DNA of 61,228 nucleotides from NCBI GenBank assembly GCA_934089255.1, contig CAKOJI010000003.1, forward strand, positions 1 to 61,228, in the 5' to 3' direction. This document shows positions 5,715 through 44,942 of the stretch, piece after piece; within the stretch, counting starts at the first letter, position 1, and each line of letters begins with the position of its first letter. The position numbers and the translations under genes were made by a program. This stretch comes from an uncultured Bacilli bacterium (lineage in GTDB: Bacteria > Bacillota_I > Bacilli_A > RF39 > UBA660). The notes beneath the pieces were generated by a model. The model was not told where the DNA came from and did no database searches. It worked only from the letters and a program-made list of their open reading frames with translations.

Positions 5715-5756
5715 TAAAAAATGTGAAATATACTTATGTTTCACATTTATTTTATT
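5715..5756. terminator. Bidirectional terminator between convergent ftsW and the sortase gene
   Basis: aaatgtgaaa/tttcacattt 10-bp stem flanked by A-rich and T-rich runs. Confidence 0.6.
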
Positions 5757-8351: not shown

Positions 8352-9629
8352 GTGAAAAAAATTAAATTATTTGGAATTATATTAATTTTAGTATCGTTTT
8401 TATTTACAATTAATGTAAGAGCAGAAAATAAAAATGAAGTAAAATTGAATTTTAAAAAAGGAATTGTTTATGATGGATATGTTGAATATGATAAAATAGC
8501 AAAATTACAATTATTTAAAGGTGATGATTTAGTTGTTAACATTGAAAATAATATGGTAATTGATTTAAATGAAGCAGAATACAAGTTTGTAATTGAAGAA
8601 ATTGAAGATTCAAGTATTGCTGGCTCTAAAACACCTATAAAATTAAATATTAATAATTGGTATTACCCTATGACAACAAAATTAGGTGAAACTAAATCTA
8701 CATTCAAATTAGAAACAAGTAAATTTAGTGGAACATTAGATGTTAAATTTGTAAGAACTATAACAGTTATTAATACAAAGGTTGAAAATGTTTATGAAAA
8801 TATAACACCAAAAGGTGTAATTGATTTGACTAATAGTAAAGAATATGTAATTGATTTTTCTAAAAATGATGAGTTAACAGAAGGATTAAAATCATTTGCG
8901 GAATTAGATAAAACATTATATTATAAAAGAAGCAATGATAGTCTATTATTAACGGACAATGAAAGTGAAGCTGTTATAAAGATAGTTGGAAACAGAACAG
9001 AAAATAAAGCAATATTAACTGCAGTAAATGTTGGAACTAAAAAAAGTGAAAATTTTAAAGGATTTCATATGCAATATACGGGTTCAGCATTGGATTATAA
9101 CAACACTGAGGATGGTATTATATATGAAACAAGATATGATTACTATACCAGATGCACTTATGATTTTACATTTAAATATGCAGATGAAAAAAATATAGTT
9201 GAAGAAATTAGTTACAAGTTTTTAGAAGGTGAAAATTTAAATTATACAATTGATAAAGATAATAATGCTAGATTTAGAATTGACGCTGATTATAGTTTAT
9301 TTCAAAATGGTGGTAAAGTTTATATAGATAATGTTTTAGTTGATAGTAATAACTATACATCAGAAAGTGGTAGTACAATAATTAATTTAAAAAAAGATTA
9401 TTTAAATAAATTAAGTATAGGAGAACATAAATTAGAAGTATTGTTTAATAATGGTGGAGTAGCTGAAAGTAAATTTACTATTAATAAGACTAAAGAAGAA
9501 ATAGAGACAAAAAAAGAAGAAACTATTAAAATAGAAAATCCAAAAACTGTAGATAATATTACTATTTATTTTGTATTAAGTATTATATCTGTTTTAAGTT
9601 TAATATCTTTAAGAAAAATTTGTAATTAA
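8352..9629 (+). CDS. Sortase-anchored surface protein (no recognisable repeat family)
   Basis: GTG start behind AAAGGAGA, with a signal peptide. The C-terminal NPKTV (9537..9551) is followed by a hydrophobic helix and a basic tail. Confidence 0.75.
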   Translation: MKKIKLFGIILILVSFLFTINVRAENKNEVKLNFKKGIVYDGYVEYDKIAKLQLFKGDDLVVNIENNMVIDLNEAEYKFVIEEIEDSSIAGSKTPIKLNINNWYYPMTTKLGETKSTFKLETSKFSGTLDVKFVRTITVINTKVENVYENITPKGVIDLTNSKEYVIDFSKNDELTEGLKSFAELDKTLYYKRSNDSLLLTDNESEAVIKIVGNRTENKAILTAVNVGTKKSENFKGFHMQYTGSALDYNNTEDGIIYETRYDYYTRCTYDFTFKYADEKNIVEEISYKFLEGENLNYTIDKDNNARFRIDADYSLFQNGGKVYIDNVLVDSNNYTSESGSTIINLKKDYLNKLSIGEHKLEVLFNNGGVAESKFTINKTKEEIETKKEETIKIENPKTVDNITIYFVLSIISVLSLISLRKICN

Positions 9630-9799
9630 GTTATTAAAGAATAGGAGAGAAAAACTCTTCTTTTTTTTGTTTTTAAATTATATTTTTCTACAATATTTTT
9701 ATATTTTAAGTGTTAAATTGGTAAATACAATGAAGTTGTTGGTGGTATGATATTTTATATTTCTTTATAATTTTATTTATAGAATAGGAGTAAAAATAT

Positions 9800-11425
9800 A
9801 TGAACAGAAAACAGAAGATTATAGTAAGTGTAACAGGAATATTTATAGTATTATTAATACTTGTAGGATTAACATATGCATACTTCTTAACTAGAATACA
9901 AGGAAATACTAATACTAAATCTATTTCAGTTACAACTGCAGATTTAAAATTAACATACGGAGATGGAACTAATCAAGTATTAGCACCAGATACAAAATTA
10001 CTTCCTGGTAGTGATGCAATAGGTACTAAGGATTTTACTGTTACAAATGAAGGAAACAGTAAAACTAGTTATGTAGTAGTAATTGAAGATGTAAGTATTA
10101 CTAAAAATGGTAGTACTACTACATTCGAATCTAATGACTTTAGATATACTTTAACTTGTACTAAAAAAGATGGTACAAAATGTGATGGGATTACATCACA
10201 AACAATATTTCCAATAAATGGTGGACTTTTAATATCAAATAGTGTAGATGTAAGTGATGTACAATCATACACATTAACATTATGGTATATAGATACTGGA
10301 ATAGACCAATCAAATGATATGGGAAAAACATATAATGCAAAAGTAAATATAAAAGATACTGATTCATTAACATTAAATAATCCATATAGAAATGAAACAG
10401 ATACATTAAAGAAAACTATAATAGATAATGCTATGATAGGAACTGGTAGTACTAAAATGGGTAGTGAAGTAACTACATTTACTAAAGTTTCAGGAGAAAA
10501 TGACAAACTACTTAATACAGCACCAGATGATTATGGTACAAGTTACTATTACTATGGAGCAGTAACAGATAATTATGTATCATTTGCAAATAAACTATGG
10601 AGAATAGTACGAATTAATGGAGATGGCTCAATAAGACTAGTTTTAGATGATGTTGCAAAAGATAGTAGTGGAAGTGTAATAGAAACTGAATTTAATCCAA
10701 ATTTTGATGATAATGCATATGTAGGATATATGTATGGCACAACAGGAAGTACAACATATGATGAAACGCACAGGAATATAAATGATAGTACAATAAAAAC
10801 AAATGTAGATAAGTGGTATGAAGATAATTTAAAAACAAATTATGCAAACTATTTATCAGATACATTATTCTGTAATGATAAAACACTTTCTTCAAGTGGT
10901 ATAGGTGAAGTGACAACACAACTTGGTTATGGAGCAAATAGAACATTTTATTCAACAACAGAAAGATTGGAATATAGTACAGGAACAACAGACATAACAA
11001 CTGCAAAGCCAACATTTAAATGTGCAGAAAGTGCAACAAATGATTATTCAAGATTTACAGTAAATGTCATAACACTACCAAATGGAAATAAAACAAATGG
11101 AAATTTAACATATCCAGTAGGACTACTAACAGCTGATGAAGTATCATTTGCTGGAGCATACAAAAGTGGTCAAACAAATAAATCATGTTATTTATACAAT
11201 TCTTCCATATCTTCTCGTTGGTGGCTTTCGTCTCCGGATTTTTATGGCGGTTCGACTGCGTTTGAGTGGGTCGTTTATGCATCGTATGGTTACTTCGGAA
11301 GCAATGACGTCGTCAACAGTGGTGGTGTCGATCCTGTCGCTTTCCGCCCTAGTATCAATCTAAAGGCTGAAACGCTTGTGAGTCAGGGTGATGGTACTAA
11401 ATCAAATCCTTATGTTATAAAATAA
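9800..11425 (+). CDS. Secreted protein with a SipW/TasA-type signal peptide. It has a TasA-like N-domain and a large C-terminal adhesin-like domain ending in a WW..SP...FRP module.
   Basis: The N-terminus MNRKQKIIVSVTGIFIVLLILVGLTYAYF matches the TasA/camelysin signal class. The N-domain is paralogous to 36310..37056 and 44943..45722. The C-terminus is homologous to 222..527. Confidence 0.8.
   Translation: MNRKQKIIVSVTGIFIVLLILVGLTYAYFLTRIQGNTNTKSISVTTADLKLTYGDGTNQVLAPDTKLLPGSDAIGTKDFTVTNEGNSKTSYVVVIEDVSITKNGSTTTFESNDFRYTLTCTKKDGTKCDGITSQTIFPINGGLLISNSVDVSDVQSYTLTLWYIDTGIDQSNDMGKTYNAKVNIKDTDSLTLNNPYRNETDTLKKTIIDNAMIGTGSTKMGSEVTTFTKVSGENDKLLNTAPDDYGTSYYYYGAVTDNYVSFANKLWRIVRINGDGSIRLVLDDVAKDSSGSVIETEFNPNFDDNAYVGYMYGTTGSTTYDETHRNINDSTIKTNVDKWYEDNLKTNYANYLSDTLFCNDKTLSSSGIGEVTTQLGYGANRTFYSTTERLEYSTGTTDITTAKPTFKCAESATNDYSRFTVNVITLPNGNKTNGNLTYPVGLLTADEVSFAGAYKSGQTNKSCYLYNSSISSRWWLSSPDFYGGSTAFEWVVYASYGYFGSNDVVNSGGVDPVAFRPSINLKAETLVSQGDGTKSNPYVIK
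11221..11350 (+). other. Adenine-depleted, GC-rich codon island inside the CDS (candidate hypervariable region)
   Basis: My hand count gives A17 T45 G39 C29 of 130 nt. It is full of codons that are rare elsewhere in the window (tcg, gtc, ggc, gcg, cgc, ccg). Confidence 0.5.
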
Positions 11426-13833: not shown

Positions 13834-15009
13834 ATGAAGATTAAAGTTGGTGTTATATTTGGTGGAGAAAGTGTAGAACATGAAGTAAGTATAATTAGTG
13901 CATTACAAGCAATAAATAATATTGATAAAAATAAGTATATAGTAGTACCTATTTATATTTCAAAAGACAAGGTGTGGTATACAGGAAAAGATTTATGTGA
14001 TATATCTATTTATAATGATTTAGATAAAGTTAAAAAAAATTCTAAAAGTGTAAGTTTATGTAAGGTTGGTAATGAATACTATTTAATACAGACAAAAGGT
14101 TTATTAAATAAAATTGTTGATAAAATAGATATAGCTTTTCCTATTGTTCATGGACAAAATGTAGAAGATGGTTCTTTAGCAGGGTATTTAGAAACTGTTG
14201 GAATTCCGTATGTTGGACCTAATGTTCTTGGTGCTAGTTTAGGACAAGATAAAGTAGTTATGAAACAAGTATTTGAATCTTCTAATATTCCGGTAGTAGA
14301 TTATGTGTGGTTTTATGAAAGTGATTATATAAATGATGAAGAAAAATATTTAAGAGACATTAAAAAACTTGAGTATCCAGTTCTTGTTAAACCAGCTAGT
14401 TTAGGTAGTAGTGTAGGTATAAATTTTGTTAAAAATGAAAATGAAATAAAAGATGCAATAAATGAAGCTTTTACTTATGATGATAAAATTGTTGTTGAAA
14501 AAGCAGTAGAGAATTTAATTGAAGTTAATTGTAGTGTTTTAGGTGATAAGAATATGCAAAGTACTAGTGTAATAGAACAAGTCTTATCTAATAATCAAAT
14601 TTTAACTTACGAAGATAAATATATTGGAGATTCTAAAAAAAGTGGTGTAAAGAGTAAGGGTATGGCTAGTACTAATAGGATTATACCAGCTAGAATAAAT
14701 AAAGAGTTAGCTCATAGTGTAAGTAATATTAGTAAAGATGTTTTTAAAGTACTAAATTTAAGTGGAGTATGTAGAATAGATTTTTTAATTAATTCAAAAA
14801 CAAATGAAGTATTTGTAAATGAACCAAATACTATTCCAGGGTCTTTATCATATTATTTATGGGAAAAATCTAATATAAAATATAGTGAATTATTAGATAG
14901 ATTAATTAGTATTAGTATTAAAAATTATAAAGATAGAAGAAAAAAAGTATTTAGTTTTGATACTAATATATTAAAAAATTATAATAAAAATAGTGGTTTT
15001 AAGAAATAA
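13834..15009 (+). CDS. ddl: D-alanine--D-alanine ligase
   Basis: MKIKVGVIFGGESVEHEVS N-terminus and ATP-grasp motifs (LVKPASLGSSVGI, EPNTIPG). The start is set to ATG 13834; the ORF track starts at 13792, which would overlap murF. Confidence 0.9.
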   Translation: MKIKVGVIFGGESVEHEVSIISALQAINNIDKNKYIVVPIYISKDKVWYTGKDLCDISIYNDLDKVKKNSKSVSLCKVGNEYYLIQTKGLLNKIVDKIDIAFPIVHGQNVEDGSLAGYLETVGIPYVGPNVLGASLGQDKVVMKQVFESSNIPVVDYVWFYESDYINDEEKYLRDIKKLEYPVLVKPASLGSSVGINFVKNENEIKDAINEAFTYDDKIVVEKAVENLIEVNCSVLGDKNMQSTSVIEQVLSNNQILTYEDKYIGDSKKSGVKSKGMASTNRIIPARINKELAHSVSNISKDVFKVLNLSGVCRIDFLINSKTNEVFVNEPNTIPGSLSYYLWEKSNIKYSELLDRLISISIKNYKDRRKKVFSFDTNILKNYNKNSGFKK

Positions 15010-15074
15010 AGTGTATATTACTTTACATAAATTTTAAAAAATTTTAAATTTTGTATTTATTTTTTTAAAATATT

Positions 15075-15083
15075 TGATATAAT
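15075..15083 (+). promoter_or_regulatory. Extended -10 promoter (TGaTATAAT) for the sRNA candidate
   Basis: The TGATATAAT sequence ends 6-7 nt before the first base of the long hairpin. Confidence 0.45.
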
Positions 15084-15089
15084 AAATAT

Positions 15090-15194
15090 GCACAACAGAG
15101 TTCTGTATATACACTTAACTTTACTCACACTTTGTAATGATGTCGACAATTATGACAAAGTCCATATATGCGCCTTCTGTTGTGCTTTTTTTTT
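15090..15194 (+). ncRNA. Candidate ~105-nt small RNA: one long imperfect hairpin ending in a U9 tract
   Basis: GCACAACAGA (15090..15099) pairs with TCTGTTGTGC (15176..15185). Inner pairings include ACTTTGT/ACAAAGT. A T9 run follows at 15186..15194. The region has no ORF. Confidence 0.4.
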
Positions 15195-15217
15195 GCTTTA
15201 AATTATGTTAAAATTAA

Positions 15218-15270
15218 TTTGAAATGCGAATAATTATATTTTTAGACATAAAAGTGGGCTTTTAGACGTG
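15218..15270 (+). promoter_or_regulatory. Conserved upstream box (copy 1) with TTTTAGAC direct repeats
   Basis: tttgaaatgcgaataattatatttttagacataaaagt is identical to 19111..19148. A second TTTTAGAC repeat lies ~20 nt downstream. Confidence 0.5.
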
Positions 15271-15335
15271 TTTTTTAATTTAATTATAAAATTATGGTAT
15301 TGTATTTTACAATTTCAATTAGGGGAGTGATTAAT

Positions 15336-17159
15336 ATGTTAAAAGAAAAAACAGGATATGCAAGTATTGATAAACCTTGGTTAAAGTATTATCCTAACAA
15401 TGTGTATGAAACAGTTACAGAAAATGTTGATGAAAAAATATTTGATTTTATGCATTCAAAAAATATTGATGATTTAAATGATTATGCTTTAAGTTATTTT
15501 GGAAGAAAAATAACTTATACTGAAATGTTTAGCGAAATAGAAAATTATGCAAAAATACTTAAAGGATATGGAATTGGCAAAAATGATATAGTTTCATTAT
15601 GTTTACCTAACATTCCAGAAACAGTGTATTTAAAATATGCTTTAAATAGAATTGGTGCTATTTCTAATATGATTGATCCTAGACAAAGTAGTCAAAATAT
15701 TTTATCTTTTGTAAATGATACAAATTCTAAATTATTATTTTGTATTTTGGATGCTTGTGAGTTAAAAATCAATCCTATAATAGATAAATTAAAAGTTGAT
15801 GATGTTGTTATTTTAAGTGTTTCAGATTCGTTAAATATGAATACTAATTTGACATCTTCTATAGTAAATTTGATGTATAAAATCAAAAAAAATGATTATA
15901 TAAATAAAAATAAAAATTATAAAAGTAAATATAAATTTAATGATGATTTAAATAAATTCTATACTGATTATTTAAATGTTGATACTAATTATGAACCCGA
16001 TGATGTTGCAACAATAATGTACACTAGTGGTACAACAGGTACAGCAAAGGGTGCTATGTTAACTAATGAAGCTTATAATACAATGCATAATCAATTACAA
16101 TATACAGCTGATTTTAGAAGAAAAGATACTTTTTTTGGAGCTATTCCATTCTTTTCGGCATATGGTTCTTTTTGTGGAATGCATAATTCGTTGTGTTCAG
16201 GACAAGAAATAATTTTGTTACCTAAAATTGATCCAAATAAAATAGATAAAGTATTGTTAAAATATAAACCAAATATATCTTTCTTGGTTCCTGGATATTG
16301 GGAAAGTTTTAGCAATAGTAAAAAAGCGAATAAAAAAGATTTATCATATATGAAAATTATTGTTGCCGGAGGAGATAAATGGGCGCCTGCATCAATTAAT
16401 ATTGTTAACGATTTCTTGAAAAAACAAAATTGCGAACATAAAGCAAGAGTTGGTTATGGTGCAACAGAATTTGGTGGTGCTGTCTCAGTTGTTCCTGAAA
16501 GTGATTTATATATAGCAGGAAGCGCTGGTTTAGTTTTACCATCTTGTAATGCAATGGTAATTGATAGAGAAACTAATGATGAATTGAAATATAATGAGAT
16601 AGGTGAGATTTGTATATCATCTCCAACAATGATGAAAGGTTATATAAACAAAGAAGAAGAAACTAATCAATTAGTTATTGTTAAAAATAATGAAAAATTT
16701 TATAAAACTGGAGATCAAGGATATATTAATGAAGATGGAATTATTTTCGTTATTGACAGATATAAACGTTCAATGATGAGACCAGATGGTCATACAGTGC
16801 ATGCAACTCCAATAGAAAATACAATTTTAGAAAATGAAAATGTCGAAAAATGTTGTGTTGTTGGTTTAAAAATTGGAGATAAGGCTGGAGATATCCCTAC
16901 TGCATTTATTAAAGTAAAAAATAAAACTAATATAGAAGACTTTATAAATGAATTAGATAATTATTGTTTAAAATACTTAGCTGAAAGGGATAGAGCATTA
17001 GCATATGTTTTAATCGATGAAATGCCATATAATCTAATGGGAAAAATTGATTATAGAAAATTAGAACAAATTAATATAAAAGACTTAGATATAATAATTG
17101 TTGATAATACATTTTTTAGGGAAAAAAGTAATAAAAAAATATTAAAATTACAAAAATGA
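15336..17159 (+). CDS. Acyl-adenylate-forming enzyme (ANL superfamily, acyl-CoA/ACP-synthetase-like)
   Basis: YTSGTTGTAKGA AMP-binding motif, GYGATE and TGD. The N-terminal SIDKPWLKYY is shared with 19225..21570. The start is set to ATG 15336 behind AGGGGAG. Confidence 0.8.
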   Translation: MLKEKTGYASIDKPWLKYYPNNVYETVTENVDEKIFDFMHSKNIDDLNDYALSYFGRKITYTEMFSEIENYAKILKGYGIGKNDIVSLCLPNIPETVYLKYALNRIGAISNMIDPRQSSQNILSFVNDTNSKLLFCILDACELKINPIIDKLKVDDVVILSVSDSLNMNTNLTSSIVNLMYKIKKNDYINKNKNYKSKYKFNDDLNKFYTDYLNVDTNYEPDDVATIMYTSGTTGTAKGAMLTNEAYNTMHNQLQYTADFRRKDTFFGAIPFFSAYGSFCGMHNSLCSGQEIILLPKIDPNKIDKVLLKYKPNISFLVPGYWESFSNSKKANKKDLSYMKIIVAGGDKWAPASINIVNDFLKKQNCEHKARVGYGATEFGGAVSVVPESDLYIAGSAGLVLPSCNAMVIDRETNDELKYNEIGEICISSPTMMKGYINKEEETNQLVIVKNNEKFYKTGDQGYINEDGIIFVIDRYKRSMMRPDGHTVHATPIENTILENENVEKCCVVGLKIGDKAGDIPTAFIKVKNKTNIEDFINELDNYCLKYLAERDRALAYVLIDEMPYNLMGKIDYRKLEQINIKDLDIIIVDNTFFREKSNKKILKLQK

Positions 17160-17219
17160 TTTTAATATTTTTTCTTGCTATTACGGGAATATTTTGATAC
17201 TATTAGTCTAGGTGATAAT

Positions 17220-19007
17220 ATGAATGTGGGTATATCTTTTACTTTGTTAAGTGTAATATATAATTTAATTTTAAATATTATATATTTACCTAAAGAACGT
17301 ATAAAAAGTATAGAAAATACAATCTATACAGTTTTAATTTTAACAACATTATTTGGGAGTATAGAAGGTATATTTTGTTATATAGGCGTAAAATATTATG
17401 ATATATATCCTTTATTTTCAGTTTTAGTTTCTAAAGGGTATTTAGTTTTTTTACTTATCTGGTTTTCTATATTTACACTTTATGTAATATATATTTCTAA
17501 TATTAAAATTTATGGTGATAATAAAGAAAAATTTTTCAGAGTAATAAAGTTATTTGTAGTTTTAGCTATTATAATATTTTTACTTATTTGTTTTTTGCCA
17601 ATAATTTATGTATCAAATAATAATATAGTTTATACAACTGGTTCAAGTGTTAAGTGTGTTTATTCATTTTCTGTATTATATTTTATTGTTTGGATAGTTT
17701 GTGTTATAAAAAATATTAAAAATTTAAATAAAAAATTTATTCCAGTATTTTTAAATATTGTACTTTTGATTGTAGTAGTTGCTATACAAAAATATAATCC
17801 AGCGTTATTACTTGTTACATCATCTTTATCATTAATTACCTTTTTGATGTATTTTACAATAGAAAATCCCGATGTTAAACAAATGAAAGAACTGGCTAAA
17901 AATAATCTTATAACAGAACAGGCATATATAGATAAATCTAATTTTATATTTGAGATGACACAAGAGGTTAGAGAACCATTAAATTATATAAAAAATACAA
18001 CAAAGAATATGTTAGACAATGAACCTAGTAAAGATGAATACAAAGAAGGATTAACATACGTTTATAATGCTTCAAGACAATTAGATTTTGTAGTTAATGA
18101 TGTTTTAAATGTTAGTTCTTTAGATGTACAAAAAGTTAAATTTTTAAATAATAGATATAGTTTAAAAATGATTTATGAAGACTTAATAAAAAGAATTGAA
18201 CAAAGTGTTAGTAAAACTGTGGAATTTAGACATACTATTCCAAGTGAAGTTCCATATTTATATGGAGATAATATAAAATTAAAACAAGTTTTATATTCTT
18301 TATTAATGAATGCTGTTAGAAAAACTGAAAATGGTTTTATTGAGTTTAATATAGATATTATAGAAAAATATGATGTTTGTAGAGTTATTTTTAGAATAAC
18401 TGATAGTGGTGTTGGTATAGGTATAGACAAAATAAATGAAATATTAAGTGTTACTAGTGAATTAGATAAAGATGATATAGTTAATTTAGAAAAATCAGAA
18501 TTTAATATAGAATTGTGTCAAAAAATAATTAAATCATTAGGTGGTAATTTACTTATTAAAAGTAAGTTAGGAAAAGGTACTGAAATAATTTTAACAATAG
18601 ATCAAAAAAAATATATTGAAAAAAATATAGTAGACTCTAATAATTTTGGAAATAAGAGTGTTTTAGTAGTTAACCAAGATAAAAATATTAATAATCTACT
18701 TAGAAAGAAATTTCTTAAAAATGATATAAATGGTTCATTTTTAATGTATGGAATGGATGCAATAGATAAAATTAAGAGTGGTAAAAAATATGATTATATA
18801 TTGTTACAAGATGAAATGAAAGAAATGTCTGGATATGAAACTTTAAAAAAATTAGAAGAATTAGATAAATTTGATATGCCAGTAATTATAATGTTAAAGG
18901 AAAATAAATATAGTATAAAAGAGCATTATATAAAAGATGGTTTTAGTGATTATATTTTATTGGGAAGTTTTAGTAGTGAAATAGATAGAATAATGAACAA
19001 ATATTAA
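17220..19007 (+). CDS. Membrane hybrid histidine-kinase-like protein with a degenerate H-box and a degenerate receiver (pseudo-kinase, copy 1)
   Basis: About 7 TM helices. The H-box-like EMTQEVREPLN has Gln where His is expected. The N box LLMNAVRKTENG, G1 DSGVGIG and G2 GKGTE are retained. The receiver-like VLVVNQD ... ILLQDEMKEMSG has Gln at the Asp position. The start at ATG 17220 is set by analogy with the paralog (taggtgataatATG versus taggtgataatGTG). Confidence 0.75.
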   Translation: MNVGISFTLLSVIYNLILNIIYLPKERIKSIENTIYTVLILTTLFGSIEGIFCYIGVKYYDIYPLFSVLVSKGYLVFLLIWFSIFTLYVIYISNIKIYGDNKEKFFRVIKLFVVLAIIIFLLICFLPIIYVSNNNIVYTTGSSVKCVYSFSVLYFIVWIVCVIKNIKNLNKKFIPVFLNIVLLIVVVAIQKYNPALLLVTSSLSLITFLMYFTIENPDVKQMKELAKNNLITEQAYIDKSNFIFEMTQEVREPLNYIKNTTKNMLDNEPSKDEYKEGLTYVYNASRQLDFVVNDVLNVSSLDVQKVKFLNNRYSLKMIYEDLIKRIEQSVSKTVEFRHTIPSEVPYLYGDNIKLKQVLYSLLMNAVRKTENGFIEFNIDIIEKYDVCRVIFRITDSGVGIGIDKINEILSVTSELDKDDIVNLEKSEFNIELCQKIIKSLGGNLLIKSKLGKGTEIILTIDQKKYIEKNIVDSNNFGNKSVLVVNQDKNINNLLRKKFLKNDINGSFLMYGMDAIDKIKSGKKYDYILLQDEMKEMSGYETLKKLEELDKFDMPVIIMLKENKYSIKEHYIKDGFSDYILLGSFSSEIDRIMNKY

Positions 19008-19028
19008 TGTATTGTTTTGTTAAATGAA

Positions 19029-19087
19029 TTAAATTTATTTTTATAATATAAGGACTTACTTTTTTGGTAAGTTTTTTTGTTTTTTAT
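19029..19087 (+). terminator. Terminator plus flanking remnant, near-identical to the uppP 3' end and its terminator (25008..25068)
   Basis: acttac-ttttttg-gtaagt hairpin + T-run. About 45 of 48 nt are identical to the copy after uppP, and the similarity extends into sequence matching the last uppP codons. Confidence 0.6.
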
Positions 19088-19110
19088 TAACAAAAGTATG
19101 TTATAATTAG

Positions 19111-19167
19111 TTTGAAATGCGAATAATTATATTTTTAGACATAAAAGTAAGCATTTTAGACATAAAA
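19111..19167 (+). promoter_or_regulatory. Conserved upstream box (copy 2) with two ttttagacataaaa direct repeats
   Basis: A 38-nt identity with 15218..15255. The direct repeats lie at 19133..19146 and 19154..19167 (21-nt period). Confidence 0.5.
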
Positions 19168-19224
19168 TTTTATTTTTATTAAATTAGTGATATAATATTA
19201 AATTAATTTAAGGGGGGTATATAT

Positions 19225-21570
19225 ATGAATATTGGAATAGATATAGATGGAGTACTTACTGATATTAGAAAGTTTCAATTAGAAAAGGGAGAAAAGTTTT
19301 TTAATAAAAAAATTGTAAATAAAGATGGTTTTACTATTAGTGAAATGTTTAATTGTAGTGAGAGTGAATCTAGAAAGTTTTGGACTAAGTATTTATTAGA
19401 ATATTCTACTATTTTTAAAGCTAGGGTTAATGCGTCTAGTGTTATTAGTAAATATAAAAATAGTAATAATAAAATATTTATAATAACTTCACGAGAATTT
19501 ACTAATAAAGATAATTTTATGGGTAAATTAATGAGATTTATAGTTACTGAATGGCTTAAGAGTAATAATATAAGTTATGATAAAATTATTTATTGTGGTG
19601 AAAGTAAAAAACAAGAAATAATAAATAATAATATAAATGTTATGATTGAAGATAATAAGGATAATGCTTTAGAATTAAGTCCTTATACAAAAGTTATTTT
19701 AGTAGATGAAGAATATAATAAAAACGTTTCTAGTGATAATATTTATAGAGCTAATGATTGGTTAGAAATTGATGATTATTTAAAATGTTTTAGTAGATTA
19801 TTTAATAGAAGTGCTTATTTAAACCAAAAAAGTGTTACTGGATATCCTAGTATTGATAAGCCTTGGCTTAAATATTATACTTATGCTCAATCTATAAATA
19901 GAGTACCTGATATGACAATATATCAATGTATGGAATATGGTGTTAAAAATAATTTAAATAGAGAAGTTTTAAATTATGTAGATAGAAGTATATGTGGGAA
20001 TGAATTTTTAAGTAATATAGATAATGCTAAGAAGGCTTTAAAATGTTTATATAAAGATACTAATAATATTGAAGATGAAATAGTTTCTATAGTTTCAAAT
20101 AATGTACCAGAGGCAATCTATGCATTTTATGCTGCTAATAGATTAGGTATGACGGTTAATTTAATACATCCTTTATCTAGTAAAAAAAATATAATTAGTA
20201 GTATTAAAAATTGTAATTCTAAAATAGTTTTTTGTATTGATTTTGATTATGAAAAAATAAAAGATATATGTGATAGTAAAGTTGTTGTATTATCTAATAA
20301 AGATTCTATGCCTTTATTTACTAAATTAATTTATAGTAGTACATTAAAAGATTTAGAGTTTTATAAAGAAAAGAGAAAAGATAATTTTATTACTTGGGAT
20401 GAATTTAATGGTTTAGGTAAAAATGTTTTAGAAGTAGAAGATTATCCTTTTATACCTAATAGAGCTCAAGTAATACTTAGTACTGGTGGAACAACTGGAG
20501 CACCAAAAGGAGCACTTTTAACTAATGAAAATTTTAATAGTATGCCTAGTCAGTATGGTGTGAAAGCTAATTTTAGTGAAAAAGATAAAATGGTTGCAGT
20601 TATGCCAATTTTCCATGGGTTTGGACTTTGTAATTGTATTCACATGCCACTTGCACTTGGAGCTTCTGTTATATTAATGCCTAAGTATGATGCTAAGAGT
20701 TTGGCACATATATTTAAAAAACATAAACCAAGCGATATAATGGGTGTTCCAACTTTAATGAGAGATATATTACATAATAAAGTATATTCAAATATTGATT
20801 TTTCATTTATTAATTATATAGTTTCTGGCGGTGGACCTATGGGTGCAGATGAAGAATTATTTAATGAATTTTTAAAGAAAAGAAATTGTAGTAAAAAAAT
20901 AACTAAAGGATATGGTTTAACAGAAGCTACTAGTAGTTTAACATTTACATTTGATGATAGTAATGATGTTAATAGTGTTGGAATACCGCTTGTTAATACA
21001 GATATAAAAATTGTAGAACCAGGAACAACTAAAGAATTAAAATATAACGAATTAGGCGAAGTTTGTGCTAAAGGACCATCTATTATGAAAGGTTATTATA
21101 AAAATAGTGCTGCAACTAACGAAGATTTAGTTTTTCATGAAGATGGAGATTTATGGCTACATACTGGAGATATGGGATATATTAATACTGATGGAAAATT
21201 ATTTATAACAGATAGAATTAAAAGATTAATTATAGTTAGTGGTGTTAATGTGTATCCTTCTTTAATAGAAGATACAATAGCAAGTCATTATATGGTTAAA
21301 GAGTGTTGTGTTATAAAAAAACCGCATGAATATAAGTATGAAGTTCCTAAAGCATACATAGTTTTAAATGATGGATATGAGTTTACAGAACAATTAAAAA
21401 AAGAACTTTTAAATTTATGTAATTCTTTACCTAATAAATATTATATACCACAAGAAATTGAAGAAATTGATGAGTTACCAAAAACTTTAATGAATAAAAT
21501 AGATTATAAATTATTAGAAGAAAAAGAGAAAAATAATAAAGTATTAAGAAAGGAAAATAAAAATGTTTAA
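19225..21570 (+). CDS. Fusion of an N-terminal HAD/5'(3')-nucleotidase-like domain and an acyl-adenylate-forming (ANL) enzyme
   Basis: MNIGIDIDGVLTD HAD motif I, then YPSIDKPWLKYY, STGGTTGAPKGA, GYGLTE and TGD. Confidence 0.8.
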   Translation: MNIGIDIDGVLTDIRKFQLEKGEKFFNKKIVNKDGFTISEMFNCSESESRKFWTKYLLEYSTIFKARVNASSVISKYKNSNNKIFIITSREFTNKDNFMGKLMRFIVTEWLKSNNISYDKIIYCGESKKQEIINNNINVMIEDNKDNALELSPYTKVILVDEEYNKNVSSDNIYRANDWLEIDDYLKCFSRLFNRSAYLNQKSVTGYPSIDKPWLKYYTYAQSINRVPDMTIYQCMEYGVKNNLNREVLNYVDRSICGNEFLSNIDNAKKALKCLYKDTNNIEDEIVSIVSNNVPEAIYAFYAANRLGMTVNLIHPLSSKKNIISSIKNCNSKIVFCIDFDYEKIKDICDSKVVVLSNKDSMPLFTKLIYSSTLKDLEFYKEKRKDNFITWDEFNGLGKNVLEVEDYPFIPNRAQVILSTGGTTGAPKGALLTNENFNSMPSQYGVKANFSEKDKMVAVMPIFHGFGLCNCIHMPLALGASVILMPKYDAKSLAHIFKKHKPSDIMGVPTLMRDILHNKVYSNIDFSFINYIVSGGGPMGADEELFNEFLKKRNCSKKITKGYGLTEATSSLTFTFDDSNDVNSVGIPLVNTDIKIVEPGTTKELKYNELGEVCAKGPSIMKGYYKNSAATNEDLVFHEDGDLWLHTGDMGYINTDGKLFITDRIKRLIIVSGVNVYPSLIEDTIASHYMVKECCVIKKPHEYKYEVPKAYIVLNDGYEFTEQLKKELLNLCNSLPNKYYIPQEIEEIDELPKTLMNKIDYKLLEEKEKNNKVLRKENKNV

Positions 21571-22321
21571 TTATCAAACAGGAAGAAAAGTTGTTAAAAG
21601 TATATTTATGCCTTTATATCATCCTAAAATAATTAATGAAGCATTGGTTCCAAAAAGTGGTCCAATTATTCTATGTGGGAATCATTTACATGTTTGGGAT
21701 CAGGTACCAGTGATTTGTTCTACAAAGAGAACTATTCATTGGATGGCTAAAAAAGAATATTTTGATTCTAACATGGCTTGGATGTATAAGGGATTTGAAT
21801 GTATTCCAGTTGATAGATATAATAATCCACATGAATCAAAAGAAATAGCAATTAAATATTTAAAAAATGGAGAAGCTGTTGGAATATTTCCAGAGGGTAC
21901 TAGAAATAGATTAACTTTTGCTAAAAAAAATTATTTAGAGAAGTTGGAAAATTATAGAAAGTTTTTATATGAAAATTATTCTAATGATAAAGCAGTTTTA
22001 TATAATAATGAGTATTATGTTGAAATGAAAGAAGCACAAGAAAAATTAACAGAAGTAAAAAAAGATTTAGAAAAAAGAAAAATTACAGATTATGATGAGA
22101 ATGATATATTATTACCGTTTAAATTTGGTGCAGTTAAGATGGCTCAAGAAACTAATTCATTAATAGTACCATTTGGAATAACTGGGGATTATAAAGTTAA
22201 TAATAATAATTTAACTTTAAGATACGGAACTCCAATTAATGTAAGTAATATGGATTTAGAAGAAGCAAATAATATTTTAAGAAATGATATAAAAAGATTA
22301 GTTTTAGAAAATAGAAAGTAA
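21563..22321 (+). CDS. PlsC/LPLAT-family acyltransferase
   Basis: NHLHVWD (HX4D) and FPEGTR motifs. It overlaps the upstream ligase gene by 8 nt. Confidence 0.8.
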   Translation: MFNYQTGRKVVKSIFMPLYHPKIINEALVPKSGPIILCGNHLHVWDQVPVICSTKRTIHWMAKKEYFDSNMAWMYKGFECIPVDRYNNPHESKEIAIKYLKNGEAVGIFPEGTRNRLTFAKKNYLEKLENYRKFLYENYSNDKAVLYNNEYYVEMKEAQEKLTEVKKDLEKRKITDYDENDILLPFKFGAVKMAQETNSLIVPFGITGDYKVNNNNLTLRYGTPINVSNMDLEEANNILRNDIKRLVLENRK

Positions 22322-22395
22322 GGAATAGTTAATGCTATTCTTTTATTGTTTTATTAATAATATTTTGCTATACTGTTGGTATAGTAGGTGATAAT

Positions 22396-24192
22396 GTGAA
22401 TAGTATATTAATTCAATGTTGTAGTTTTCTATATATAGTTTTATTACTTTTTGTATATTTTTCTAAAAAAAGACTTAATGTTTTAGAAAATAAAATATAT
22501 ATAATTATGTTAATATCTAACTTTCTTGGTTTGATTATTGATGTTGCAAGTGTATTTACTATTAAATATATGGATACAATACCACTTTTAAATAGTATTG
22601 TAACTAAATTATATTTAATATATTTGCTTACATTTATGTTTTTATTTACTTTATATATTTTAACTATATCTATAAAAGATAAGAGTAAGGGTAGAATTAA
22701 AGTTATAAAATCTATTAAATTTGCTAGTTTTATATACTGTATATTCTTTATAATAACAAGTTTTTTACCACTATATTATAAGAATAATAATGGTGTTATA
22801 TATTCATATGGACCAGCGGCTACATTTTTATATTTAGTAAGTACATTATGTATGGCAGTTTGGTTAATATGTACAATAAGTAATTTTAAAAATATTAGAG
22901 ATAAAAAGTATTTACCTATGTTTGTTTTCTTTGTTATAGGAAGTTTAGTTACAGCTATACAAGGTGCAAGACCAGAATTATTACTGATGACTTCTATGGA
23001 ATCTTTTATAATAATGCTTATGTATTTCACTATAGAAAATCCTGATATTAAAATGTTACAAGAAATGGCAAAGAATAATGATTTAGTAGAACAAACATAT
23101 ATTGATAAATCTAACTTTTTATTTGAACTTACTGGAGAAGTTAAAAATCCACTTAACAATATCAGAGAGGTTACTAGAGAATTAGAAGAAGTTAATGATT
23201 TAGAAGAAATAAAAAGTGGTTTAAAAATTATAAATAATTCCATAAGACAATTAGATTTTGTAATGGATAATGTTTTAAATGTTAGTTCTTTAGATGTACA
23301 AAAAGTAAAATTTATGAATAATAGATATAATTTAACTTCTTTGTATAAAGATTTAGTAGCTAGAGTTAGTCAAAATATAAAAAGTGATGTAGAATTTAGA
23401 CATAGTATTCCAAATAATGTTCCATATTTATATGGTGATAGTATAAAATTAAAACAAGTTTTATATTCTTTGATAATGAATGCTGTTAAAAAGACTGAAA
23501 ATGGTTTTATAGAATTTAAAATTAATACAATAGAAAAATATGATGTATGTAGAGTTATATTTGAAATTGTTGATAGTGGTGTTGGAATATCATTAGATAA
23601 AATAAATGAGATTTTAAGTGTTACGGGTGAATTTGATAAAGATGATTTAGATTCTTTAGAAAAAACAGAATTTAATATTAAGTTATGTCAGAAAATAGTA
23701 AAATCTTTAGGTGGTAATTTACTTATTAAAAGTAAAGTAGGACATGGTACAGAAGTTATATTAACTATTGATCAGAGAATATTTAAAAATGAAAAAGAAA
23801 ATAATTTAAAAGTATATGAAAATATATTAATGAATAATAAAAGAGTATTAGTGGTTAATCAAGATAAAAATATTAATAATTTACTTAGAAAGAAATTTCT
23901 TAAAAATGATATAAATGGTTCATTTTTAATGTATGGAATGGATGCAATAGATAAAATTAAGAGTGGTAAAAAATATGATTACATTTTGTTACAGGATGAA
24001 ATGAAAGAAATGTCTGGATATGAAACTTTAAAAAAATTTGAAAAATTAGATAAATTTGATATACCAGTAATTATAATGTTAAAGGAAAATAAATATAGTA
24101 TAAAAGAGCATTATATAAAAGATGGCTTTAGTGATTATATTCTACTAGGAAGTTTTAATAGTGAAATTGACAGAATAATAAATAAGTATTAG
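22396..24192 (+). CDS. Membrane hybrid histidine-kinase-like protein with a degenerate H-box and a degenerate receiver (pseudo-kinase, copy 2)
   Basis: Paralog of 17220..19007. The H-box-like ELTGEVKNPLN has Gly where His is expected, and it has the same degenerate receiver. The last 333 nt are ~95% identical to copy 1. Confidence 0.75.
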   Translation: MNSILIQCCSFLYIVLLLFVYFSKKRLNVLENKIYIIMLISNFLGLIIDVASVFTIKYMDTIPLLNSIVTKLYLIYLLTFMFLFTLYILTISIKDKSKGRIKVIKSIKFASFIYCIFFIITSFLPLYYKNNNGVIYSYGPAATFLYLVSTLCMAVWLICTISNFKNIRDKKYLPMFVFFVIGSLVTAIQGARPELLLMTSMESFIIMLMYFTIENPDIKMLQEMAKNNDLVEQTYIDKSNFLFELTGEVKNPLNNIREVTRELEEVNDLEEIKSGLKIINNSIRQLDFVMDNVLNVSSLDVQKVKFMNNRYNLTSLYKDLVARVSQNIKSDVEFRHSIPNNVPYLYGDSIKLKQVLYSLIMNAVKKTENGFIEFKINTIEKYDVCRVIFEIVDSGVGISLDKINEILSVTGEFDKDDLDSLEKTEFNIKLCQKIVKSLGGNLLIKSKVGHGTEVILTIDQRIFKNEKENNLKVYENILMNNKRVLVVNQDKNINNLLRKKFLKNDINGSFLMYGMDAIDKIKSGKKYDYILLQDEMKEMSGYETLKKFEKLDKFDIPVIIMLKENKYSIKEHYIKDGFSDYILLGSFNSEIDRIINKY

Positions 24193-24217
24193 CATATTAT
24201 TTATAGAAAGAAGGACT

Positions 24218-25027
24218 ATGATGTTATTAAAATATATTATATTGGGAATTATACAGGGTATTACTGAACCTTTACCAATTAGTAGTAGTGGACATATATT
24301 TATATTTAAACAAATATTTAATACTAATATGTTTAATGATTTAAATTTTGAAATATTTGTTAATTTTGCTTCTTTTATAGCAATATTAATTATATTTTGG
24401 AAAGATGTTGTTAAATTAGTTAATGGATTTTTTAATTATATATTTAATAAAGATAGAGAGAAATATTATAATGAGTTTAAGTATTCATTAATGATTATAA
24501 TAGGTACTATTCCTGTGGGAATACTTGGTGTATTATTTAAAGATAAGATAGAAACTACTTTATCTAAAACTTGGATAGTAGGTTTAATGTTTATTGTTAC
24601 TGGAATTCTTTTATTATTAGTAAAAAATATAAATGGTAAAAAAGGAGATAATGATATAACTTATAGAGATGCTATTATTATTGGTTTAATGCAAAGTGTT
24701 GCATTATTTCCTGGTTTATCAAGAAGTGGTACTGTATTAGTTGCATGCTTATTATGTAAATTATCTAGAGAAACATCATTAAAATATACTTTTATGTTAT
24801 ATTTTCCAGTAAGTGTTGCAACAATATTACTTGGAGTTAAAGATGTATTAGAAACTGGCATAACTGGTAGTATGATGTTATATTATTTTGTTGGGATGGT
24901 AAACGCTTTTATATTTACTTATTTAACTTATAAAGTATTGAGTGAAATAGTTAAAAAGGGTAAACTTTGGAAGTTTTCAATATATTTATTTATACTTGGT
25001 ATTTTTACATTAATTTATTTTTTATAA
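24218..25027 (+). CDS. uppP: Undecaprenyl-diphosphatase
   Basis: PISSSGH and PGLSRSG motifs in a polytopic protein of 269 aa. Confidence 0.9.
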   Translation: MMLLKYIILGIIQGITEPLPISSSGHIFIFKQIFNTNMFNDLNFEIFVNFASFIAILIIFWKDVVKLVNGFFNYIFNKDREKYYNEFKYSLMIIIGTIPVGILGVLFKDKIETTLSKTWIVGLMFIVTGILLLLVKNINGKKGDNDITYRDAIIIGLMQSVALFPGLSRSGTVLVACLLCKLSRETSLKYTFMLYFPVSVATILLGVKDVLETGITGSMMLYYFVGMVNAFIFTYLTYKVLSEIVKKGKLWKFSIYLFILGIFTLIYFL

Positions 25028-25034
25028 TATAAAA

Positions 25035-25068
25035 ACTTACTTTTTTGGTAAGTTTTTTTGTTTTTTTA
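25035..25068 (+). terminator. Intrinsic terminator after uppP
   Basis: acttac/gtaagt hairpin + T-run, duplicated at 19054..19087. Confidence 0.6.
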
Positions 25069-25148
25069 TCAAAAAACAACGAAGTTGTTGGTTGTTATAA
25101 TTTTTAAAAAAATATACCATAATGTTAACAGAACTAGGAGGCGGTCCT

Positions 25149-25364
25149 ATGAGCTTGCGAGAAGTATTCAGAGATAATGTTAAACATTATAGGAAAAAGA
25201 AGAAGTTATCACAAGAACAGCTTGCGGAGATGTCTAATTTAAGTACTAATTATATTGGCGATATTGAAAGGGCTAACAGGAAAGTTACTATAGATACTAT
25301 TGAAAAAATATCTAAAGGGTTAAATGTGGAAGCACATTTGTTATTAATGGAAAGACGTAAATAA
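25149..25364 (+). CDS. XRE-family helix-turn-helix transcriptional regulator
   Basis: LSQEQLAEMSNLSTNYIGDIERANRKVTIDTIEKISKGL HTH. ATG 25149 lies behind AGGAGG; the ORF track starts at 25122. Confidence 0.75.
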   Translation: MSLREVFRDNVKHYRKKKKLSQEQLAEMSNLSTNYIGDIERANRKVTIDTIEKISKGLNVEAHLLLMERRK

Positions 25365-25427: not shown

Positions 25428-26408
25428 ATGAAATGGAAAATAAAAGATGTTGCAATAAATAATCAAGTAGTATTAGCGCCTATGGCTGGTATTAGTAATT
25501 CTAGTTATAGAAAAATTATTAAAGAGATGGGTGCTGGATTAATATTTGCGGAAATGGTTAGTGATAAAGCAATAATGTTTGATAATAAAAAAACAATAGA
25601 TTTACTTAAAATGGATGATTATGAAAGACCTATTGCACAACAAATATTTGGTAGTGATGTTGATTCATTTGTTAGTGCTGCAAAAAGAATAGAGGAGTTA
25701 ATGCATCCAGATATAATTGATATAAATATGGGATGTCCTGTTCCAAAAATTGCAATCCGTAGTCAAGCTGGTAGTGCTTTATTAAAAAATCCAGAAAAAA
25801 TAGGAGAAATAGTTAGGAAAGTTAAAAATGCAGTTAGTGTTCCTGTTACTGTAAAAATAAGAAGTGGATGGGACGAACGTTCTATTAATTGTGTAGAGGT
25901 TGCAAAAATTATAGAGAAAAGTGGTGCTAGTGCAATAACACTTCATGCTCGTACTAGAAGTCAAGGTTATAGTGGAAAGGCTGATTGGTCTTTAATTAAA
26001 AAAGTCAAAGAAAATGTTAGTATTCCTGTAATAGGTAATGGGGATGTAACTACTCCAGAACTTGCTAAAAAAATGTTAGATGAAACTGGATGTGATGCTG
26101 TTATGATAGGAAGGGGAGTATTAGGTAATCCTTGGCTTATAAAACAAACTGTTGAGTATCTAGAAAATGGAACTTATAAAAAAGATGTTACTTTTCAAGA
26201 AAAGATAGAAATGTTAAAGAGACATTATAATTTGTTACTTTTAGATAAGAAAGAAAGTTTAGCACTTCTTGAAATAAGAAGTCACGCTTTATGGTATTTA
26301 AAAGGTTTACCTAATGTATCTAAAGTTAAAGTTTTAATATGTAATGCTAAAACTAGTGAAGAGTTATTTGATATATTAGATAATTATAAGGAAAGTTTAA
26401 ATGATTAA
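25428..26408 (+). CDS. dusB: tRNA-dihydrouridine synthase
   Basis: [18 protein letters not shown] and HARTR motifs in a 326-aa protein. Confidence 0.88.
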
Positions 26409-27141
26409 AGATAATTTTGATAAGTTAGAACGAATAAAAACTATTGGTGATGGTAGAAACGGTTTTATATATTTAAGTAAATATAATGGTAATATTTGTA
26501 CTTGTAAAGATTTTGCTACTAAAGAATATATTAAATTAATAAATGATAAAATGTTAAAACTTATAGAGTATTATAAAAAAGATTCTTCTTTGGTTTTTCC
26601 TTTTAAATTTTTATATAATGATTTAAATGATGATTATTTTGATTCGTATTTAACGGAATATAAAGATGGCTATAAAGATTTATATGAATTTTATAATTTA
26701 GATTATAAAGAAAAAGTGAGAATCTTAAAAAAGATAAGAGTATTAATTCAAGAAATGCATGAAGTTTATAAAGTAATTCATACTGATTTATATGATAATA
26801 ATATAATGTATAATAAAGATTTAGATAGTGTATGTATTATAGATTTTGATTCTTATATAGATATTAATAGTAAAGAAGGATATTTAGGTATTGAAATGAA
26901 TTTTTTAAGTAGAAAATATATTGAAAATACTGGTATAGATCAAAGTGTTGATGTATTTATGTTTAATTTATTGTGTTATTCATTTTTAAATAATGTAGAT
27001 TTTTATGATGTAATAAATTATATTTATAAAGGTGAATATGGTGTATTAACTGATAATAGAATTATAAATGTCTTAAAAAGTTATAAGTTTTTCGATTGTA
27101 GAAGAAAAGTTAAAAAAGAATATATATTAGATTATATTTAG
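26401..27141 (+). CDS. Small protein-kinase-fold protein (CotS/APH-like)
   Basis: [13 protein letters not shown] (HxDxxxxN-like) and IIDFDS (DFD) motifs. It overlaps dusB by 8 nt. Confidence 0.5.
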
Positions 27142-41024: not shown

Positions 41025-41100
41025 ATATTAATAAAAAATATCTATTTTTTTTAAAATAAAAAAGGAAATACAAAAAAATCGGTAATATTTATAGTAGGAG

Positions 41101-44833: not shown

Positions 44834-44888
44834 ATTTAACCATCTATTTTTTTGTTACAAAAAAATGCAAAAAAATACAAAATTTAAA

Positions 44889-44917
44889 TTGACAATCAAA
44901 TAAGTATCTGATATGAT
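44889..44917 (+). promoter_or_regulatory. Near-consensus sigma-A promoter (TTGACA-17-TATGAT)
   Basis: Read directly from the sequence. Confidence 0.6.
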
Positions 44918-44942
44918 TTTATTGTAGGAAGGATGAAAAAAA

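Follow-up and report, generated by a model that had tools for sequence, protein, structure and literature searches.

What does a hybrid histidine kinase do once both of its phosphoacceptor residues are gone? This question is raised by two paralogous genes found on a 61,228-nucleotide (nt) stretch of DNA from an uncultured Bacilli bacterium (GenBank assembly GCA_934089255.1, contig CAKOJI010000003.1), the whole of which is referred to here as the window. One of them, psHK1 (17220..19007), encodes a protein of 595 amino acids (aa), W1, and the other, psHK2 (22396..24192), encodes the 598-aa paralog W2. Both genes and all their features described below are on the + strand, and the two proteins are 61% identical. 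An initial annotation of the window had described them as hybrid kinase-like proteins that lost the phosphoacceptor His and Asp but kept an intact ATP-binding site. Both open reading frames (ORFs) proved to be real, and the observation held once three of its details were corrected and is more than a chance resemblance. Our comparisons of their sequences indicated that W1 and W2 are very probably unable to accept phosphate at the canonical sites and that selection nevertheless maintains them.

The domain order is the same in both proteins, with seven transmembrane (7TM) helices followed by HisKA-like, HATPase_c and Response_reg domains. On the basis of the ORF, Pfam and an AlphaFold model (mean predicted local distance difference test score [pLDDT], 77.9), W1 consists of a 7TM domain, a degenerate DHp domain, a degenerate CA domain and a pseudo-receiver. 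The Pfam scores for HisKA were around or under the cut-off of 26.9 bits (27.3 bits for W1 and 20.9 bits for W2), and those for HATPase_c and Response_reg were 47-53 bits and 35-38 bits, respectively. The sensor of about seven TM helices that had been proposed initially was borne out by both hydropathy and the model, whose helices in this part have a pLDDT of ~90. In W1, it covers aa 1-215 (17220..17864) and ends with an invariant junction motif, MYFTIENPD; according to hydropathy and the model, its outward loops span 5-16 residues, and a short hairpin at aa 129-140 faces outward. No Pfam family matched this domain at E<=1. When the W1 model was searched with Foldseek, WalK, HK853, RetS and DivL were matched at E values of 1e-10 to 1e-14, and GacS was also among the fold matches. 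Only ordinary kinase domains were matched in this search, and nothing was found for the 7TM part. The DHp and CA folds are thus present in W1 and W2 as judged by Pfam (HATPase_c and HisKA) and Foldseek.

The kinase half lacks the H-box histidine and the ATP lid

The kinase positions of W1 were assigned by residue-level phmmer alignments to the solved kinases RetS, GacS and SrrB, together with the columns of the family alignment. The H-box remnant FEMTQEVREPLN (17949..17984) aligned opposite KISHEIRTPMN of the solved kinases. The phospho-His position is occupied by Gln248 in W1 (codon 17961-17963) and by Gly247 in W2 (23134-23136), so that the changes from His to Gln in the first copy and from His to Gly in the second, initially read by eye, were confirmed by profile and pairwise hidden Markov model (HMM) alignments. 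A substitute His within the DHp region was ruled out, since the only His residues are at positions 338 and 569 in W1 and at positions 336, 450 and 572 in W2. The E/DxxT/N phosphatase motif reads Q-E-V-R-E in W1, with Glu252 at the position of the Thr/Asn, and G-E-V-K-N in W2, which retains it formally. In the close homologs (see below), the Thr/Asn position is E105/D11/N6.

The CA domain of W1 (18150..18614), which is HATPase_c-like and was delimited by Pfam, phmmer and the family alignment, keeps part of the ATP-binding site. The N box, LLMNAVRKT, retains the Mg-binding Asn364 (18309-18311), and this residue is an Asn in 119/122 close homologs. The N-box Tyr position is a Lys in W1 and is variable among His-less members. 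The G1 box, DSGVG, is found at aa 395-399 (18402-18416), with its Asp and both Gly residues invariant in the 122 sequences. GKGTE (18570-18584), which had been taken for the G2 box, is the G3 box, and it is kept. The true G2 position, which is EGTGLGL in canonical relatives, reads EKSEFNIEL in W1 (18489-18515) and EKTEFNIKL in W2 (23659-23685): the canonical LFNKFER...EGTGLGL aligned without a gap to ILSVTSE...EKSEFNIEL of W1, in which the F-box Phe is replaced by Leu. Of the intact ATP site described in the initial annotation, the N-box Asn, the G1 DSGVG and the Bergerat fold were therefore retained, and the G2 and F boxes were lost. The G2 glycines and the F-box Phe make up the ATP lid of HisKA-type kinases. 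With the F box and the entire G2 lid motif lost in all His-less members, autokinase chemistry by W1 and W2 is very unlikely, and ATP-dependent scaffolding is possible at most.

The receiver half lacks its catalytic residues

The pseudo-receiver of W1 (18654..19004) was delimited by phmmer, the family alignment and the strand ends in the model. It has the (beta-alpha)5 receiver fold, with five strands alternating with helices at a pLDDT of 84-92. Alignments by phmmer to the solved receivers 6ont, AdeR and TM0468 showed that the acidic pair is replaced by Asn485-Gln486 and that the phospho-Asp (Asp57) position is Gln530 in W1 (18807-18809) and Gln533 in W2 (23992-23994), in agreement with the changes from DD to NQ and from Asp to Gln noted earlier. 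The conserved Thr and Lys are both lost, as had also been noted, but the residues in their place are one position before the Lys560 and Gly582 that had been named: Thr87 corresponds to Leu559 (18894-18896) and Lys109 to Leu581 (18960-18962). The neighboring Asp531 of the LLQD sequence was considered as the real acceptor and ruled out because gap-free alignments place it at D+1. LMDDMMPKMSG of the canonical relatives pairs without a gap with LLQDEMKEMSG of W1, the canonical members also have an Asp at D+1, and beta3 ends at Gln530 in the model. A His or a receiver Asp at the catalytic positions, which the initial annotation had named as the finding that would speak against it, was not seen in the profile alignments. 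A computationally detected receiver without key catalytic residues is defined as a pseudo-receiver (Bourret et al. 2025, PMC12632262), and this describes a domain that Pfam detects as Response_reg and from which these residues are gone.

W1 and W2 were rejected as independent witnesses of this receiver state. The receiver-coding 3' ends of the two genes (18651..19007 and 23836..24192) are near-identical in a DNA alignment; the windowed DNA identity is 88-95% over the receiver, 49-61% in the 7TM part and 49-84% outside the receiver, with a sharp boundary at the receiver start. Gene conversion between the two ends has probably occurred recently. Because the receiver-coding DNA is near-identical, the two copies amount to one observation for the receiver. 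The earlier argument that the state is maintained since both paralogs share the same degeneracies therefore failed for this domain, and the maintained state itself was upheld by the homologs.

The degenerate state is conserved among close homologs

The closest 120 database clusters had identities of 49-98% and were almost all full length, and W1 and W2 brought the set to 122 sequences. This was the homolog survey that had been suggested, and the His position in these sequences was Q67/G54/A1 and never His. The flanks of the H box are near-invariant (F-E-M-T-x-E-V-R-E-P-L). The Asp57 position is E90/Q27/D2/K1, and the second residue of the acidic pair is always Gln. The sequence replacing the G2 box, K-S-E-F-N-I-E-L-C, is itself conserved. 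Mean identity to W1 was highest in the CA domain (80%, with 30% invariant columns), followed by the DHp domain (71% and 26%), the receiver (62% and 21%) and the 7TM domain (38% and 2%). The "dead" domains are therefore more conserved than the membrane domain, which is in line with purifying selection on a new function and at odds with decay. A pseudo-histidine kinase is a conserved kinase-like protein without at least one kinase function (Collins and Childers, as cited in PMC12632262). At the sequence level, W1 and W2 would be such proteins, with no His, no G2 box and a conserved family.

A canonical sister group reveals a graded loss of motifs

To place these proteins in a wider family, an exhaustive HMM search was run against 1.84 billion cluster representatives, of which 1035 were found at E<=1e-30. 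The best 150 of the 1035 were nearly all full-length matches including the membrane domain, down to 30% identity. On alignment, they divided cleanly into a canonical and a His-less group. The ranking of the relatives was by similarity to W1, which biases the proportions of pseudo and canonical members but not the correlations between motifs. In a neighbor-joining tree of Kimura distances, which gives a rough phylogeny only, 33 canonical sequences formed one tight cluster. This group has all of the expected motifs (SHEIRTPLN, NAxKYT, DxGxG, EGTGLGL, DD, Asp57, LTANA and KP). In the 114 His-less sequences, the His position was mostly Gln, and Asn, Glu, Ala, Thr, Asp and Gly were also found. A GxGxG G2 box was present in 30 of the 32 canonical sequences scored for motifs and in 0/114 His-less ones. 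Canonical and pseudo members have 30-35% full-length identity and a common 7TM and DHp architecture, so that the seven-helix domain belongs to both.

The results were similar with a larger motif set of 230 His-less and 35 His-containing sequences. None of the 230 His-less sequences had the G2 glycines, and retention was 88% for the N-box Asn, 97% for the adenine-binding G1 Asp and 94% for the G1 glycines. The F-box Phe was mostly replaced by Leu (191/230), the Thr87 position was Thr or Ser in only 29%, and the small residue at T+1 had become Asp, Asn, Lys or Glu. The receiver shows graded decay, with DD.D.T.K at one end, DD.D.[L/I].K in between and [N/S/T]Q.x.L.L, the state of the window proteins' subclade, at the other end. 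One family thus contains a series from canonical members, through members without His and G2 but with a near-intact receiver, to members in which every site is lost, and the order of losses is visible.

Source annotations call members of the family "response regulator" or "hybrid sensor histidine kinase/response regulator," so that the two-component systems counted in metagenome-assembled genomes (MAGs) of gut Bacilli and Clostridia would include proteins predicted to be incapable of phosphotransfer signaling.

Genes for acyl enzymes accompany the family

In the window, five + strand genes lie between Ddl and UppP, in the order ligase 1, psHK1, NT5C-ligase 2, PlsC and psHK2. Ligase 1 (15294..17159; Pfam AMP-binding, 4e-64) is an acyl-AMP ligase of the fatty-acid-CoA type, although its scores with the NCBIfam long-chain-fatty-acid--CoA ligase models were under the model cut-offs. 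It adjoins psHK1 on the upstream side with a gap of 60 nt. The third gene (19225..21570) encodes an NT5C/HAD-like domain (19225..19800) fused to acyl-AMP ligase 2. The ORF of the PlsC-type acyltransferase (21563..22321; Pfam Acyltransferase, 2.5e-19) overlaps with its start the stop codon of ligase 2, and it lies 74 nt upstream of psHK2. The undecaprenyl-diphosphatase gene (BacA/UppP; 24218..25027, + strand; Pfam BacA, 2e-73) is found 25 nt downstream of psHK2, at the place where canonical relatives encode Hpt and receiver proteins.

A similar arrangement was found in every locus examined, ~15 distinct loci in all: directly upstream of the kinase-like gene, on the same strand and with a gap of 0-75 nt, is a gene for either a PlsC-type acyltransferase or an acyl ligase of the AMP-binding type, and the enzyme is often a fusion with an HAD/NT5C-like domain. 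In the window, it is ligase 1 for psHK1 and PlsC, preceded by NT5C-ligase 2, for psHK2. Elsewhere, the upstream gene is a ligase in L001, L002, L009, L010 and L015-L018 (the last four being His-less with DD-D-K receivers), an NT5C-ligase plus PlsC in L003, a 463-aa HAD-acyltransferase in L004, L005, L011 and L012 and one of 467 aa in L006. The outer genes vary by locus (IleRS, LexA and MGDG synthase; PheRS, TetR and an ABC transporter; Mur ligases or tRNA synthetases). Therefore, the conserved unit is the pair of the kinase-like gene and the acyl-enzyme gene.

The same upstream enzymes were found in the four canonical loci (L013, L014, L019 and L020). The L013 ligase, which is upstream of a canonical kinase, has 44% identity to the core of window ligase 2, and the L013 NT5C-acyltransferase has 44% identity to the window NT5C domain and 46% to the window PlsC. 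Downstream, the canonical kinases are followed by genes for Hpt and a receiver, either fused or separate, or by a gene for a receiver protein. None of the ~11 His-less loci examined has such a partner gene, and no two-component gene other than psHK1 and psHK2 was found within the 61-kb window. The loss of the His, the loss of the G2 and F boxes and the lack of neighboring Hpt and receiver genes thus go together in the His-less lineage, and the pairing with acyl enzymes persists through all stages, from canonical to fully degenerate. The membrane sensor, the dimerization helices and the CA and receiver folds are also retained. The conserved acyl-enzyme neighbor offers a concrete target for a nonphosphoryl output. 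This pairing and the canonical sister clade, neither of which was noted in the initial annotation, are the most informative evidence on where such an output may be directed.

Several other features of these loci were observed. In L013, L014, L019 and L020, the stand-alone receiver has no DNA-binding output domain nearby; even an intact phosphorelay of this family may therefore control proteins and not transcription. Another set of neighbors recurs in L003, L004, L005, L011, L012 and L021, where an acyltransferase-linked pseudokinase is followed by genes for a TetR-family regulator, an ABC ATPase and a 12TM_1 membrane protein of 530 aa. The window does not have this set.

An in-frame chimera, P0108, occurs outside the window (L021 7001..8824; L022 2977..4800), on 14 contigs from several samples. 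Its residues 1-250 have 69% identity to the N terminus of window NT5C-ligase 2, and its residues 227-607 match the L011 pseudokinase over its cytoplasmic part with 97% identity. The chimera takes the place of the HAD-acyltransferase gene and the 7TM domain, with synteny otherwise identical, and its product would be a soluble NT5C-pseudokinase fusion. The NT5C/HAD module is thus fused to a ligase in the window, to a cytoplasmic pseudokinase in P0108 and to a PlsC acyltransferase in other genomes (L013 5472..6941, L011 6558..7946 and L006 7123..8526). That the module moves among the genes of one set is suggestive of a single pathway, with diacylglycerol-type lipids as a possible product.

Relation to known pseudokinases and pseudo-receivers

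Histidine pseudokinases and pseudo-receivers are recognized as classes, but few have been studied, and their mode of action is mostly unknown (PMC12632262). The closest functional analog of W1 and W2 is PsmA (SCO4009 family) of Streptomyces, a hybrid histidine pseudokinase in which the ATP lid is degenerate and which acts by protein binding; it showed no autokinase activity and does not depend on its receiver Asp for function (PMC12963549). W1 and W2 resemble PsmA in that they are hybrid proteins conserved within a lineage, without the H-box His, with a variable residue at its position in orthologs and with unconserved lid motifs. However, PsmA is a cytoplasmic protein of >1200 aa with PAS domains and a long disordered region, binds DivIVA and keeps a dispensable receiver Asp. 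The window proteins are ~600-aa 7TM proteins of Firmicutes that have lost the receiver Asp and the accessory residues and are linked to lipid-acylation genes, and no PAS domain was found in them by Pfam.

RetS of Pseudomonas aeruginosa (PDB 6dk7 and 6dk8) was among the top solved-structure matches to W1 (E ~1e-16). It is also a seven-helix hybrid sensor with degenerate G1/G2 motifs, and it acts by binding the kinase GacS and not via a phosphorelay of its own (PMC12148439). Unlike W1 and W2, RetS keeps its H-box His and carries two receivers, a 7TMR-DISM domain in the membrane and a DISMED2 domain in the periplasm. Neither 7TMR-DISM nor DISMED2 gave any Pfam match in W1 or W2 at E<=1, so that a RetS-type sensor was not found. 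In DivL of Caulobacter (PDB 4q20; PMC4211667), the His is replaced by Tyr and the DHp and CA domains are repurposed for binding and sensing, but this protein has PAS sensors and no receiver and regulates the kinase CckA within an alphaproteobacterial cell cycle network. A 2025 survey, in which the domains were counted separately, found that 0.9% of HisKA domains lack the His and 2% of receivers lack the Asp (PMC12632262). The bacterial pseudo-receivers described there have, like that of W1, a receiver fold without the acidic pair, Asp, Thr and Lys, and the window pseudo-receiver differs from them in being fused to a pseudokinase.

W1 and W2 do not belong to the PsmA, DivL or RetS families, with which they have only generic kinase domains in common. 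Similar features are known from plants. In plant pseudo-response regulators, the Asp57 position is a Glu, as in 90/122 close family members. The subfamily-2 ethylene receptors ETR2, EIN4 and ERS2 combine a membrane sensor with a His-less kinase-like domain, with or without a receiver, and signal by physical association with a downstream protein. They differ from W1 and W2 in being eukaryotic, in having a three-helix copper- and ethylene-binding domain and a GAF domain and in having no relation to lipid enzymes.

Histidine pseudokinases (DivL and PsmA), the noncanonical action of RetS and pseudo-receivers are thus established, and the principle would not surprise a two-component specialist. What is distinctive in W1 and W2 is a seven-helix sensor without a Pfam family, the loss of both phosphorylation sites together with every accessory residue of the receiver, a canonical sister clade whose relay partners can be identified and an invariant link to acyl-AMP ligases or acyltransferases, all within a large, clean and testable family. 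A literature search found no paper describing this family, and a search for hybrid kinases linked to an acyl-CoA synthetase or acyltransferase returned nothing relevant.

Possible modes of action

Because both acceptors and the accessory receiver residues are missing and this state is conserved by selection, the output of W1 and W2 must be noncanonical. The initial annotation had reached the same view, although it overstated the integrity of the ATP site. On balance, we lean toward the interpretation that W1 and W2 are histidine pseudokinases with pseudo-receivers that function as nonphosphoryl sensors coupled to membrane-lipid acylation. The ancestor would have been a canonical seven-helix hybrid kinase in a membrane-sensing phosphorelay with an Hpt protein and a stand-alone receiver, encoded together with an acyl-AMP ligase, an HAD/NT5C-like domain and a PlsC acyltransferase, and its output was probably already aimed at proteins. 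In the His-less lineage, the relay would have been dropped, and the proteins would have ceased to move phosphate. The seven-helix domain may sense the state of the membrane, such as lipid packing, free fatty acids or lysolipids; intramembrane sensing is the natural guess since only a hairpin of ~16 residues faces outward. The constrained surfaces of the DHp, CA and pseudo-receiver domains could then relay the signal by direct protein contacts, for which the acyl-AMP ligase and the acyltransferase encoded alongside are the most likely partners. A nucleotide may still be bound by the CA domain, as a ligand and not as a substrate; the kept G1 Asp and N-box Asn favor such binding, and the lost lid speaks against catalysis.

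A bolder version, which we offer only tentatively, is that the family captures the conversion of a two-component sensor into a phosphorylation-independent regulatory subunit of a membrane-lipid acylation machine composed of the ligase, the HAD/NT5C phosphatase-like module and PlsC. The canonical relay, from the seven-helix hybrid kinase via Hpt to the stand-alone receiver, would have an enzyme and not a promoter as its target, and the pseudokinases would have hard-wired this control by direct contacts. If so, this would be an undescribed way for gut Firmicutes to match fatty acid uptake or lipid remodeling to the state of the membrane.

Several points weigh against a coupling of pseudokinases to lipid acylation. 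The coupling to the acyl enzymes is deduced from gene order. The DHp part of the W1 model has low confidence, its pLDDT being 38-55 near residues 231-247 and 294-309. Retention of the N-box Asn and the G1 box may have to do with fold stability and not with nucleotide binding. The evidence covers loci and not complete genomes, so that a canonical paralog, an Hpt protein or a receiver could be encoded elsewhere in the genome. The sampling by similarity to W1 also bears on how pseudo members appear to outnumber canonical ones.

The coverage of loci and not of complete genomes leaves room for a modulator similar to RetS or DivL. W1 and W2 could form mixed dimers with, or otherwise bind to, a canonical seven-helix hybrid kinase of the same family whose gene lies in another part of the genome and tune the phosphorelay of that kinase as a decoy, inhibitor or co-sensor, with no direct action on the enzymes. 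The architecture and the 30-35% identity common to canonical and pseudo members would suit such an arrangement, as would the strong conservation of the DHp domain. RetS and GacS were among the best solved-structure sequence matches, and RetS, GacS and DivL were among the fold matches. Several paralogs per genome are also common, with two in the window and L002 and L003 coming from one MAG. However, no canonical member, Hpt gene or receiver gene was found in the 61-kb window or in the ~11 His-less loci, and the conserved partner across loci is an acyl enzyme and not another kinase. We therefore regard this explanation as unlikely.

It is less probable still that the proteins remain enzymes, with a CA domain that binds and hydrolyzes ATP or phosphorylates a non-His acceptor or another protein, which would make the term pseudokinase a misnomer. 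The high retention of the N-box Asn, G1 Asp and G1 glycines in the 230 His-less sequences and the position of CA as the most conserved domain would be expected in that case. They have to be set against the replacement of the G2 glycines and F-box Phe in the His-less members, the variable N-box Tyr position and a DHp region without any His. PsmA, in which the lid is comparably degenerate, has no autokinase activity (PMC12963549). Finally, the idea of recently inactivated kinase genes without a function of their own and heading for loss, although in line with the disappearance of all catalytic residues and of the Hpt and receiver partner genes, is scarcely credible given intact reading frames in hundreds of clusters from independent metagenomes, conserved residues of their own at the degenerate positions (T-Q/G-E-V-R-E-P and K-S-E-F-N-I-E-L-C) and dead domains that are more conserved than the membrane domain.

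Setting of the locus in the window

The window has a G+C content of ~24% and contains cell wall, division and sporulation genes of a Firmicute. Among them are genes for SpoIIGA, a sporulation-type sigma factor, MraY, FtsW/SpoVE, Mur ligases, Ddl, UppP, MraZ/MraW, PBP2B, FtsEX-PcsB, PolC and SpoIIP. Because SpoIIGA, the sporulation-type sigma factor and SpoIIP (588..2031; 57397..58269) are present, the source, a gut organism of the uncultured Bacilli/Tenericutes type, appears to be an endospore former. A ribosome-binding site, GGTGATAAT, is found immediately 5' of the psHK1 ATG. In a scan of 14900..25200, the promoter-like sites numbered 108 where 100 were expected, and nothing passed the terminator criteria, a result that is uninformative in DNA of 24% G+C. 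An AT-rich hairpin followed by a T run was seen by eye 3' of psHK1 in the DNA alignment.

Other ORFs of the window were also noted. One of 246 aa (26401..27141), which overlaps the stop codon of a dihydrouridine synthase gene, has a weak Pkinase match (34 bits; cut-off, 31.7) and could encode a short Ser/Thr-kinase-like protein or a pseudokinase. ORFs of 139-541 aa without a Pfam match at E<=1e-5 are found in 8352..11425, 39510..42159, 44414..45722 and 49515..51943. Near these ORFs are sortase genes at 5752..6570 and, with a long N-terminal extension, at 58601..60244, as well as a gene for a Listeria-Bacteroides-repeat protein.

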